Source of the DNA: Nitrospirota bacterium
GTDB lineage: Bacteria > Nitrospirota > UBA9217
Direction: 5' to 3'
Assembly (NCBI GenBank): GCA_035623825.1
Contig: DASPSR010000049.1
Location: 29,048-93,047, forward strand
Length of the DNA stretch: 64,000 nucleotides
In this document: one piece after another, positions 47,324 to 64,000 of the stretch
Numbering within the stretch: the first letter of the stretch is position 1
How the letters are laid out: each line of letters begins with the position of its first letter
Notes under the pieces: generated by a model
What the model was told of the DNA's origin: nothing
The model's input: only the letters and a program-made list of their open reading frames with translations
The model's database searches: none
Program-made: the position numbers and the translations under genes

Positions 47324-47920
47324 ATGGAAAAACCCGTTGTATTGGCATCGAATTCTCCACGGCGCAAGGAACTGCTGAGGCAGATTGGCATGAGTTTCAA
47401 ATCCGATCCCGCCGACGTGGACGAACGAATGTTGCCTGGAGAAGAGGCAGATGAGTATGCCGTCCGTGTTGCTCTCGACAAAGCCTGTGTTGCTGCGCAG
47501 AGGACTGGCACGGGAACCATTATCGCAGCCGACACGATCGTGGTGCTCGACACAGCTATCCTCGGGAAGCCGGCGGACGCCGGGGACGCCGAACGCATGC
47601 TGGGCATGCTTTCAGGCAAGATGCACACGGTTATTACGGGTCTGGTCGTTATGGATGCCGGAACGAGAAGAACACAGAAACGCATCGCTATCACAAAGGT
47701 ATGGTTCCGCGACCTTACTAAAGAAGAAATTGTATCGTACGTAGCAACGGGCGAACCGCTTGACAAGGCAGGAGCGTATGGGATACAGGAGAGAGGGGCT
47801 CTCTTTGTCCAAAAGATCGAAGGCTGTTATTTCAATGTTGTAGGCCTTCCGCTATCATTGCTTGGCGAGATGCTTGTCGATTTTGGAATAAACCCGTTCC
47901 CAATGGGAAAAAACACATAA
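47324..47920 (+). CDS. maf: Maf-family nucleotide pyrophosphatase (YhdE type)
   Basis: LASNSPRRKELL, ADTIV, GKP, DKAGAYGIQ, NVVGLP. Confidence 0.95.
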   Translation: MEKPVVLASNSPRRKELLRQIGMSFKSDPADVDERMLPGEEADEYAVRVALDKACVAAQRTGTGTIIAADTIVVLDTAILGKPADAGDAERMLGMLSGKMHTVITGLVVMDAGTRRTQKRIAITKVWFRDLTKEEIVSYVATGEPLDKAGAYGIQERGALFVQKIEGCYFNVVGLPLSLLGEMLVDFGINPFPMGKNT

Positions 47921-62757: not shown

Positions 62758-63237
62758 CTAACGATAGTTTTTTAATATCTTCTCAATGATCCCTGACGTT
62801 GATACCCCTTCAATATAACCCACGCTAACTACTCTACCGCCCCGCGCTTCGACAATATCGCGGCCGATGATTTTATCGACAGGCCAGTCGCCCCCTTTTA
62901 CAAGCACATCGGGCTGAAGCTCAGAGATGATCGAATACGGATCATGCTCTTCGAATAGAGTGACAAAATCCACAGATTGGAGCGCAGCGAGAGTTTCCAT
63001 TCGAGCCGACTCGTCATTTATCGGCCGATTTTCGCCCTTTATCGTGCGCACGGATGAATCACTGTTTACTGCAACGACCAGGATATCGCCCAAGGACTTG
63101 GCCTTGGCAAGGTAGCGTGTGTGTCCAGTGTGGATCAGGTCAAAACAGCCGTTAGTAAAAACAATCTTCTTGCCAGTCGCCCGGAGGATTCCGAGGAGAG
63201 GACGGAGTTCCTTGACCGTTTTAATCTTATCGTGCAT
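62758..63237 (-). CDS. rfaE2: D-glycero-beta-D-manno-heptose 1-phosphate adenylyltransferase
   Basis: VFTNGCFDLIHTGH, NSD.SV..IKG..RP, LVKGGDW. Confidence 0.93.
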   Translation of the reverse strand: MHDKIKTVKELRPLLGILRATGKKIVFTNGCFDLIHTGHTRYLAKAKSLGDILVVAVNSDSSVRTIKGENRPINDESARMETLAALQSVDFVTLFEEHDPYSIISELQPDVLVKGGDWPVDKIIGRDIVEARGGRVVSVGYIEGVSTSGIIEKILKNYR

Positions 63238-63442
63238 GCAAAAATATAATATAAAAAAGGGATGAAAGCAAGCAGTGTTTAGAGTCTGAACTGAACAAAA
63301 TATCATAACCTTGGGTAGTAATGCGGTTAAAAGTGACGGAAATCACAGATTAAATTACAAGAATCGCGTAAGCTTTGATAGAAGCTGCGGTTTTCGCCCG
63401 ATCATTTACAGGATTCGATCGATCAACGATTTATTGTTTCTA

Positions 63443-63549
63443 CTCCGCTCGGAGCAAACTGGAAAACTCCGGGACGCAGGGCAAGGGGACTAATGGCCAC
63501 CGAGTTCATAGTAAGCCGAGCCGTCAGAGAACATTCCTGGCGGCTTTGT
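63443..63549 (+). promoter_or_regulatory. Variant c-di-GMP-I (GEMM-I)-like riboswitch with overlapping terminator-like hairpin
   Basis: GCAAAC-hairpin-GGACGC P2 core, GGGGACTAA...TAGTAAGCC P3; hairpin GAGCCGTCAG/CTGGCGGCTT overlaps the 3' strand; lies in the 5' UTR of the next ORF. Confidence 0.55.
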
Positions 63550-63612
63550 AGGTCGTGACATCGCCGGAGCGAGCATCACGATTTCTGCATTTACTATTAG
63601 GAGGGCAATGCC

Positions 63613-64000
63613 GTGAAACTTACAAATTATTCTAAAAAAGCAGAAGTCTATGCTATTTCAGCAGTTCTCTTGACATTCCTTTACTTCTTCTTAAGGTTAG
63701 AGATCATGATATTTTCTTCTCCAGTGGAGATACTTTTTTCTTCGGCAACAACACCAAAAGTGGGATCAGACAATCAGTCGGCTATAAAATCAGAAATCAT
63801 GCCAATTACGAAGTCATCTGTAAATAAGGCTGCTGTATTGGCAAATTCACTCAGAGGAAGGTCAAACGCCAAACCAGTGATAAATTCAGACACAAGGCCA
63901 CAGGCAAAGTCAGCCTTTAAGCCATCGGCAGGACCGGACAACGCGCTGACGGCGGGATCAGGGAAGGCGCCATCGGCAGGACCGGACAACGCGCTGACGG
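63613..64000 (+). CDS. Membrane-anchored Ser/Ala/Pro/Lys-rich protein with 16-aa repeats (3' truncated; not in the ORF track)
   Basis: AGGAGGG RBS 7 nt before GTG; frame open to the window end: MKLTNYSKKAEVYAISAVLLTFLYFFL...PSAGPDNALTAGSGKA-PSAGPDNALT. Confidence 0.7.
   Translation, partial: MKLTNYSKKAEVYAISAVLLTFLYFFLRLEIMIFSSPVEILFSSATTPKVGSDNQSAIKSEIMPITKSSVNKAAVLANSLRGRSNAKPVINSDTRPQAKSAFKPSAGPDNALTAGSGKAPSAGPDNALT
63921..64000 (+). repeat. 48-bp in-frame tandem repeat (second copy cut by the window edge)
   Basis: GCCATCGGCAGGACCGGACAACGCGCTGACGG is identical at 63921 and 63969. Confidence 0.9.

Follow-up and report, generated by a model that had tools for sequence, protein, structure and literature searches.

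In the class I c-di-GMP riboswitch (GEMM-I) Vc2 of Vibrio cholerae, the two guanines of the ligand are recognized by G20 and C92, and A20 is the base found in the 3',3'-cGAMP-sensing GEMM-Ib riboswitches (PMC6140456). The same paper equates A14 of the Geobacter RNA Gs1761 with Vc2 A20, and a review table lists A12, A14, A41/A42 and C75 as the ligand contacts of Gs1761 in structure 4YAZ (PMC7288161). The engineered Vc2 double mutant G20A/C92U was described in combination with c-di-AMP (review table in PMC7288161; PMC9049102). On these points, the relevant parts of PMC6140456, PMC7288161 and PMC9049102 back the background cited in a first-pass annotation of the DNA analyzed here. Our literature search on G20A/C92U and GEMM-Ib, which covered a limited collection, returned no natural A20/U92 class. 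GEMM-I copies without a response were reported from Clostridioides difficile 630, where the duplicated class I c-di-GMP riboswitches Cdi-1-4 and Cdi-1-5 are described as non-responsive and as absent from most relatives (PMC6200980).

Here, we analyzed a GEMM-I-like leader in a 64-kb stretch of a Nitrospirota genome (hereafter the window; C7:29048-93047 of a 3.24-Mb genome in 67 contigs, the end of the contig being the end of the window). The features of the locus are given below in window coordinates.

63333..63346, + strand: CRP-like palindrome GTGA-N6-TCAC upstream of the leader promoter, conserved in the leaders L092, L093 and L095 and in the genomes G005 and G006
63405..63435, + strand: probable leader promoter, with -35 TTTACA (63405-63410), -10-like TTTATT (63430-63435) and a spacer of 19; the -35 aligns with TTGACA/TTGACG in L092/L093/L095
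63443..63528, + strand: GEMM-I-like aptamer, sub-threshold, apparently derived from an A20/C92 ON switch (RF01051 28 bits; subfamily model R1 54.6 bits)
63443..63447, + strand: P1 5' strand CUCCG, paired to CAGAG (63525-63529) except for a C.A mismatch (C63446/A63526; R1 alignment)
63451..63453, + strand: G63451, equivalent of A18 (A in all relatives; the alignments make it the counterpart of the Gs1761 ligand contact A12), G63452, and A63453, the G20-equivalent specificity base
63454..63477, + strand: P2, with base GC/GC, 5-bp stem CUGGA/UCCGG and AAAC loop (relatives: 6-bp stem, GAAA or AAAA loop)
63478..63478, + strand: A47-equivalent intercalating adenine, kept (model position 38)
63480..63523, + strand: P3 arm with two uncompensated core mismatches (G.G, G.A; standard in 22/22 relatives) and an altered tetraloop-receptor half AUAG
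63524..63524, + strand: U at the equivalent of C92, derived from C (C in L092/L093/L095 and in 22/22 other pattern matches)
63518..63552, + strand: terminator-like hairpin of 10 bp including two G.U pairs, predicted at about -21.9 kcal/mol, with the weak tail UUUGU
63599..63605, + strand: Shine-Dalgarno sequence AGGAGGG (direct reading)
63613..64000, + strand: downstream gene with GTG start, N-terminal membrane helix and short tandem repeats, cut by the contig end (full length of 170 aa in the identical contig L090)

With the Geobacter GEMM-Ib RNAs Gs1761 and Gm0970, the window element shares the three-helix GEMM-I architecture and A20; its intact relatives have the same terminator-based ON platform, and its genome likewise encodes Ser-type GGDEF enzymes (L062 and two with GGDDF). 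It differs from them in U92, in the G at A18, in four broken core pairs, in the lack of a GNRA loop, in its score below the Rfam cut-off and in its weak U tract. The bases at both base-reading positions are those of Vc2 G20A/C92U (PDB 3MUT/3MUV), but the scaffold of that mutant is intact and very tight, whereas the scaffold of the window element is damaged and a third contact base is changed. RF03167 (c-di-GMP-I-GGC) and c-di-GMP-I-UAU, which we take to be the second Rfam variant family beside it, belong to the same clan and are also defined by changed bases at ligand-reading positions. However, they are recurrent conserved variants, whereas the A/A/U combination of the window element is not conserved even among its own orthologs. 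A parallel in outcome would be Cdi-1-4 and Cdi-1-5, reported as GEMM-I copies no longer regulating; these were judged by RNA-seq, while the window element was judged by comparative sequence analysis and predicted folding, with intact orthologous leaders at hand.

An Rfam scan brought no family to its gathering score anywhere in the 64-kb window. With permissive filters, 63200-63700 gave a sole RF01051 (c-di-GMP-I) match at 63443-63528 (+), which is full-length (model 1-87 of 87) and reaches 28.0 bits (E 0.0016) at a cut-off of 35. The covariance-model check proposed in the first-pass annotation therefore gave a match, but one below the score required for membership of the family (28.0 vs 35 bits). 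RF01051 was the best-scoring model within the clan, and in a search of the whole genome the element ranked 20th of 23 matches with E <= 1 (E 0.0024), 18 of which pass the cut-off. Model R1, which was built from 22 relatives, scored 63441-63531 at 54.6 bits (E 3e-16). The full-length match, the R1 score and the orthology with the leaders L092, L093 and L095 establish homology to bona fide GEMM-I members, as the first-pass annotation had supposed when calling the element GEMM-I-like. A further R1 match in the window at 47543-47596 (12.3 bits, E 0.14) was treated as chance. RNAfold of 63430-63560 returned a minimum free energy structure without P3 and a folding z-score of -0.63, which is uninformative for a riboswitch, and a mechanically called ORF of 58 aa overlaps the element. 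Four metagenome contigs (L089, L090, L091, L094) match the window at 100% identity over 1262-1501 nt. Eight DNA sequencing runs, all peat metagenomes, were listed for this DNA, with no RNA run among them; of the four runs inspected, contigs of X1 and X6 cover the leader without differences, and those of X7 and X8 leave it uncovered. Because it is identical in four contigs and two runs, the leader sequence is fixed in the sampled population and is not an assembly error.

Direct reading gives GC-AAA-CUGGA[AAAC]UCCGG-GAC-GC at 63454-63477. In the RF01051 alignment, A63453, A63478 and U63524 occupy model positions 11, 38 and 83, and A20 and U92 thus lie where the first-pass annotation had placed them by hand. 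These model positions are presumably equivalent to Vc2 G20, A47 and C92; this numbering was checked by spacing against Gs1761, in which the distance from A14 to A41, as these contacts are numbered in the review table, is 27 nt, the same as from model position 11 to 38. The element accordingly has the A20 of GEMM-Ib (A63453) and the intercalating adenine of GEMM-I (A63478), and U63524 stands in place of the C92 of GEMM-Ib.

The helices P1, P2 and P3 are not intact. Six of the 26 modelled pairs are non-standard and four of these belong to the core (one pair of P1, one of P2 and two of P3), compared to none in the core of the relatives. The mismatched P1 position C63446/A63526 is U-A in the three orthologs and in both listed paralogs of the own genome (R1 alignment), and U-A in 20 of the 22 relatives in a MAFFT alignment, in which the other two rows are shifted by one base. 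One G-C to A-U change in the P2 stem is compensated; the other helix changes are breaks. A GNRA tetraloop on P2 that docks into a receptor in P3 is, as we take it, the definition of type 1 GEMM-I. The window element has the loop AAAC and the receptor half AUAG instead; the three orthologs also have AUAG but keep GAAA. The caveats that the first-pass annotation had attached to its reading, a P2 loop other than GNRA, AGG in J2/3 and a short U tail, proved correct on direct reading. At columns invariant in the 22 relatives, the element deviates in 9 of 53, while leave-one-out counts were 0 for 18 relatives and 1 for four. With the surviving core pairs enforced, the aptamer has a predicted folding energy of -15.6 kcal/mol compared with -22.0 to -34.3 kcal/mol in 25 intact relatives and orthologs, the weakest of 27 predicted folds, and lies 9.8 kcal/mol above its unconstrained optimum (0-7.5 in the 25 intact relatives). 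C63446 (from U) and G63451 (from A), both specific to this lineage, can pair with each other in a potential 5' hairpin CUCC-GCUC-GGAG (window 63443-63454), the counterpart of which is CUCU-GCUC-AGAG in all relatives. Such a hairpin would sequester A20 and the P1 strand; its complementarity may be a coincidence or a conserved ligand-free structure.

By their bases at the two reading positions, the 23 RF01051 matches of the genome comprise 13 G/C, eight A/C, one A/U (the window element) and one U/U (L023), with bases read as the 11th and the 5th from the end of each match, which is valid only without indels at the ends and makes L023 (20.6 bits) and the truncated L021, counted as G/C, unreliable. 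In a DNA search over 64 genomes of the family, the leader gave matches at paralog level only, and its nearest paralogs are L013 (75% identity) and L011 (71%), terminator included. Each is of the A20/C92 type with a GAAA loop, and its terminator consists of a perfect 13-bp stem and UUUUU; L013 precedes a kumamolisin gene.

A pattern that spans the aptamer and leaves position 92 open matched 23 times, in 20 of the 64 family genomes, with C92 in 22 and U92 only in the window element; correspondingly, a U-specific pattern matched one of the 64 genomes, the window's own. These counts, and likewise those of paired cells, core pairs and invariant columns among the 22 relatives, are conditional on the pattern, which itself fixes about 25 columns and excludes decayed copies. 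Twenty foreign copies and two own paralogs form the alignment (A2) of 22 from which R1 was built. With a hand-drawn structure, 93% of the cells are paired in these relatives (100% in P2 base, P2 stem and proximal P3), and nine pairs changed on both sides, a level reached in 0 of 500 shuffles. R1 gave 87-115 bits for the seeds, 76 bits for L016, a paralog outside the seed set, and 49-69 bits for GEMM-I RNAs of other phyla. The window element belongs to a tightly conserved subfamily of A20-type ON switches. Eight members (L071, L074, L075, L077, L078, L079, L081, L083) are without a terminator, and in them the RBS region (containing GCAGAGGAGG) is complementary to the P1 5' strand, which suggests that they are translational ON switches on the same aptamer.

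A second U92 copy, L028 1476-1570 (G036:C21), was found in another genus. It is a decayed subfamily copy with G20, a GAAC-type loop, a distal hairpin resembling that of the window element and a worn terminator, next to a truncated ABC ATPase fragment, a split aldo-keto-reductase-like frame and a divergent receiver-GGDEF gene. With 21.8 bits in Rfam, 47.5 bits with R1, 12 deviations at invariant columns and a predicted fold 17.5 kcal/mol above its optimum, it was not accepted as evidence for a conserved U92 clade. L028 and the window element share three derived states (P1 U to C, receptor A to U, C92U), which could stem from common descent or from parallel decay.

Orthologous leaders were sought independently of the aptamer pattern, by aligning the N-terminal part of the downstream protein with its homologs in G005 and G006 and scanning metagenome contigs, which gave 17 loci. 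Seven of 19 loci scanned contain an R1 match: the four that are identical to the window (54.6 bits) as well as L092 (92.3 bits), L093 (87.5 bits) and L095 (82.3 bits); no R1 match was obtained in L096-L105, L025 and L026. The CRP-like palindrome, the leader sequence that follows it, the position of the promoter and the gene are common to the window and to L092, L093 and L095, and bases 1-411 of L095 match the cytidylyltransferase-like gene upstream, with 86% identity to that of the window over 411 nt; these three are orthologous leaders. Each of them retains A20, C92 and the A equivalent to A18, and has intact helices including the P3 pairs C-G and G-C, a GAAA loop and a tail of U5-6. The proposal that A20/U92 might be conserved with covariation in orthologous leaders thus failed, since U92 occurs in 0/3 orthologs and 0/22 subfamily members. 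The result that the first-pass annotation had envisaged as speaking against its idea, relatives with G20/C92 beside random decay at this locus, was obtained in substance though in modified form, as the relatives have A20/C92 and scattered change is seen here.

At 17 positions of the alignment (A6), the three orthologs agree and the window element differs, including P1 U to C (giving C.A), A18 to G, changes in P2, J2/3 A to G, the P3 mismatches G.G and G.A, and C92 to U. The polarity of the changes is clear from these comparisons: orthologs, paralogs and the wider subfamily have A20/C92 on intact helices, and U92 is derived in the window lineage. The rate of substitution is raised. With the 22-member consensus as outgroup, unique changes in the window element and the ortholog were 19 v 4 (L092), 17 v 3 (L093) and 16 v 6 (L095), with relative-rate chi-square values of 9.8, 9.8 and 4.5, compared to 3 v 4 for L092 against L093; only three orthologs enter these comparisons, and L093 and L095 are close kin. 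Identity between the window and L092 was 77% in the aptamer, 80% in the coding sequence and 71% upstream, and between L092 and L093 it was 92%, 81% and 76%, respectively. Since coding and upstream distances are similar and the aptamer is at 77% instead of 92%, the constraint on the aptamer seen in the orthologs is not visible in the window lineage. G005 and G006, from the same genus and detected through the gene in the DNA search of the 64 genomes, possess the gene with a leader that lacks any GEMM-I, and because of this the switch appears to be dispensable for the gene family.

The palindrome at 63333-63346, presumably a CRP/FNR-type site, is kept in every ortholog leader read (five), including the riboswitch-less ones of G005 and G006. 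The probable promoter at 63405-63435 was not called by our consensus scan, which allows spacers of 16-18 only. The 10-bp hairpin 63518-63527/63537-63546 that the first-pass annotation had reported is present, would sequester the aptamer 3' strand, and consists of eight Watson-Crick and two G.U pairs, one of which is U63524.G63540; U92 thus sits in the terminator stem as a G.U pair. Its predicted stability of -21.9 kcal/mol compares with -13.3 to -24.8 kcal/mol in the relatives. The stem is followed by UGUAGG, or by UUUGUAGG if it is ended at C63544, and was not called by the terminator scan, as four T are found in the eight bases past the stem and the rule demands five. From the terminator to the start codon, 81 nt are found in the window as opposed to 254 to about 430 nt in the orthologs, so that about 170-350 nt are missing. 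In L093 (about 650-860) and L095 (about 880-1090), an extra small ORF with a hydrophobic N-terminus lies between terminator and gene and is absent from the shortened leader of the window. The encoded 170-aa protein (L090) has one N-terminal membrane helix followed by four copies of a short Ala/Gly/Pro-rich repeat and matched no Pfam family. Just past the window end, a gene for a receiver and HD-GYP (HD_5) protein (L090 1769-2785 (-)) runs convergently to the gene behind the riboswitch; enzymes with HD-GYP domains break down c-di-GMP or cGAMP.

The search for DAC and Hypr-type GGDEF genes suggested in the first-pass annotation was productive on both counts. One DAC-domain protein is encoded in the genome (146.8 bits; gene in L051, G000:C41:83862-84215), and in three of the 17 GGDEF matches (L062, L067 and L068) Ser replaces the guanine-reading Asp. 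Ser at this position is described as diagnostic of Hypr GGDEF enzymes (PMC8835794). L062 910-2046 (+) encodes a 378-aa GAF-GGDEF protein with the motif GGEEF and is a candidate Hypr-type cGAMP synthase; L067 and L068 both have GGDDF. Because of the DAC gene and of the GGDEF genes, three of them with the diagnostic Ser, c-di-GMP, probably cGAMP and probably c-di-AMP are plausible signals in this host.

Natural GEMM-I RNAs with U92 exist elsewhere. A GTDB-wide scan with a U92-form pattern gave 17 loci, of which 11 match the GEMM-I clan at E <= 1 and six gave no match; alignments were seen for ten of the 11, L035 being counted by its match. U at the C92 equivalent together with G20 was found in L038, L036 and L042 (71-76 bits) and, with RF03167 as the best clan model, in L045, L043, L041 and L046, while in L039 and L050 the alignment took another 3' strand, which carries C. 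The seven G20/U92 species, with the element at about base 400 in each of these loci, have best clan scores from 51 to 76 bits and are MAGs of Bacillota, Dehalococcoidia, Gammaproteobacteria, Desulfuromonadales and Thermoanaerobaculia. The combination A20/U92 occurs in an intact GEMM-I at L040 401-474 (-), the same as L107 1501-1588 (-), from a MAG labelled Slackia heliotrinireducens. Its RF01051 score is 68.2 bits and its loop GAAA; a 12-bp terminator with U6 comes after the aptamer, and a secreted repeat-like protein is encoded downstream. A second copy in the same genome (L106) is G20/C92. As judged from its sequence, L040/L107 is a better candidate than the window element for a GEMM-I that senses an adenine dinucleotide.

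Taken together, the window element is probably a decaying GEMM-Ib-like riboswitch, descended from an A20-type, presumably 3',3'-cGAMP-sensing, ON switch. The argument for this is that U92 is accompanied by uncompensated breaks in the helices, a missing tetraloop, an altered contact base, a shortened U tract and deletions in the leader, and that the pace of change is close to that of the flanks. The decaying aptamer that the first-pass annotation had mentioned as an alternative is therefore the better-supported reading, with U92 one of 17 lineage-specific changes and four core pairs broken without compensation. In the ancestor, as read from the intact orthologs and paralogs, bound ligand would have held P1 (CUCUG/CAGAG) and the P3 3' strand within the aptamer; without ligand, that 3' strand would have entered a terminator stem of 10-13 bp followed by U5-6, and ligand would have led to read-through into the small membrane-anchored repeat protein. 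In the window lineage, the aptamer has drifted about as fast as its flanks, and P1 and P2 have each lost one pair and P3 two. The GAAA tetraloop is changed, as is part of the receptor, and a ligand-contacting A is now G and C92 now U, while the terminator stem survives with its U tract reduced to UUUGU and some 170-350 nt of downstream leader gone. We infer that no ligand still elicits a useful response from the RNA and that the gene is read mainly through a leaky hairpin. Some observations run against decay: the compensated P2 change and the U-to-C/A-to-G changes that keep the 5' hairpin could mean some persisting structural selection, the predicted stability of the terminator stem lies in the range of the relatives, the leader sequence has become fixed in the population sampled, and fast change at the A18 and C92 equivalents would also be expected from an adaptive shift.

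An alternative is a weakened but working switch for the ancestral ligand, cGAMP or c-di-GMP, in which the guanine would form a G.U wobble with U92, affinity would be reduced and the set point moved by the damaged helices, and leakiness of the ON switch would come from the weak terminator. A20 and the A47 equivalent are kept, the P2 stem and the terminator stem are intact, and natural U92 GEMM-I RNAs with 68-76 bits elsewhere imply that U92 alone is compatible with an intact fold. The affinities reported for parent RNAs, about 530 pM for Gs1761 (PMC8835794) and 0.011 nM for Vc2 (PMC9049102), would leave room for big losses. Against this, four core pairs are broken in the weakest of the 27 predicted folds, the A18-equivalent contact is changed together with tetraloop and receptor, aptamer conservation is no higher than that of the flanks, and even on an intact scaffold Vc2 G20A/C92U is reported to bind c-di-GMP at only 4900 nM (PMC9049102); we regard a working switch as unlikely. 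The reading put forward in the first-pass annotation, a natural specificity switch to a cyclic dinucleotide with adenine, for instance c-di-AMP, in whose pocket A20 and U92 and, on our analysis, also the G equivalent to A18 would take part, fares considerably worse. Both bases were confirmed, the engineered Vc2 G20A/C92U is reported to bind c-di-AMP (PMC7288161, PMC9049102), the DAC-domain protein (146.8 bits) makes it probable that c-di-AMP is produced, and the intact A20/U92 RNA L040 (68.2 bits) from another phylum indicates that the combination can be kept. However, U92 is not conserved, with C in all three orthologs and in 22/22 other subfamily members, and was accompanied by 16 other changes that include uncompensated helix breaks and a weakened terminator. 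No covariation for a new fold was seen, the score is below the Rfam cut-off, and the variant is carried by one population only, which makes a switch of specificity quite improbable.

It is similarly improbable, though it would explain the burst of change as adaptive, that three contact bases (A20, U92 and the G equivalent to A18) now make up a remodelled pocket for c-di-AMP or another adenine-containing dinucleotide, on a scaffold that is looser and lacks docking of the tetraloop; if true, nature would have repeated the engineered G20A/C92U switch in a peat bacterium with a DAC enzyme. A chance resemblance, or a feature of another kind (a simple attenuator hairpin, for example, or coding sequence), might be suspected from the score below the Rfam gathering threshold, the z-score of -0.63 and the overlapping 58-aa ORF. 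It is scarcely credible given the full-length RF01051 match, the 75% and 71% identity to two paralogs including the terminator, and the orthologous position shared with intact riboswitches, and was rejected on the basis of the R1 score (E 3e-16) and the intact orthologous leaders.

Read as decayed, the leader is an ordinary, damaged derivative of GEMM-I and is not to be counted as a new ligand class. The idea of a GEMM-I for adenine-containing cyclic dinucleotides is still worth testing, on L040/L107. The case also serves as a warning that specificity bases read from a single sub-threshold match are unsafe without orthologs. For the family itself, the locus would provide a clean natural example of riboswitch decay, of modest value, for which intact orthologs, paralogs and riboswitch-less orthologs are all available, and in which it may be possible to trace in what order tertiary docking, base pairs of the helices, ligand contacts, the U tract and parts of the leader were lost.
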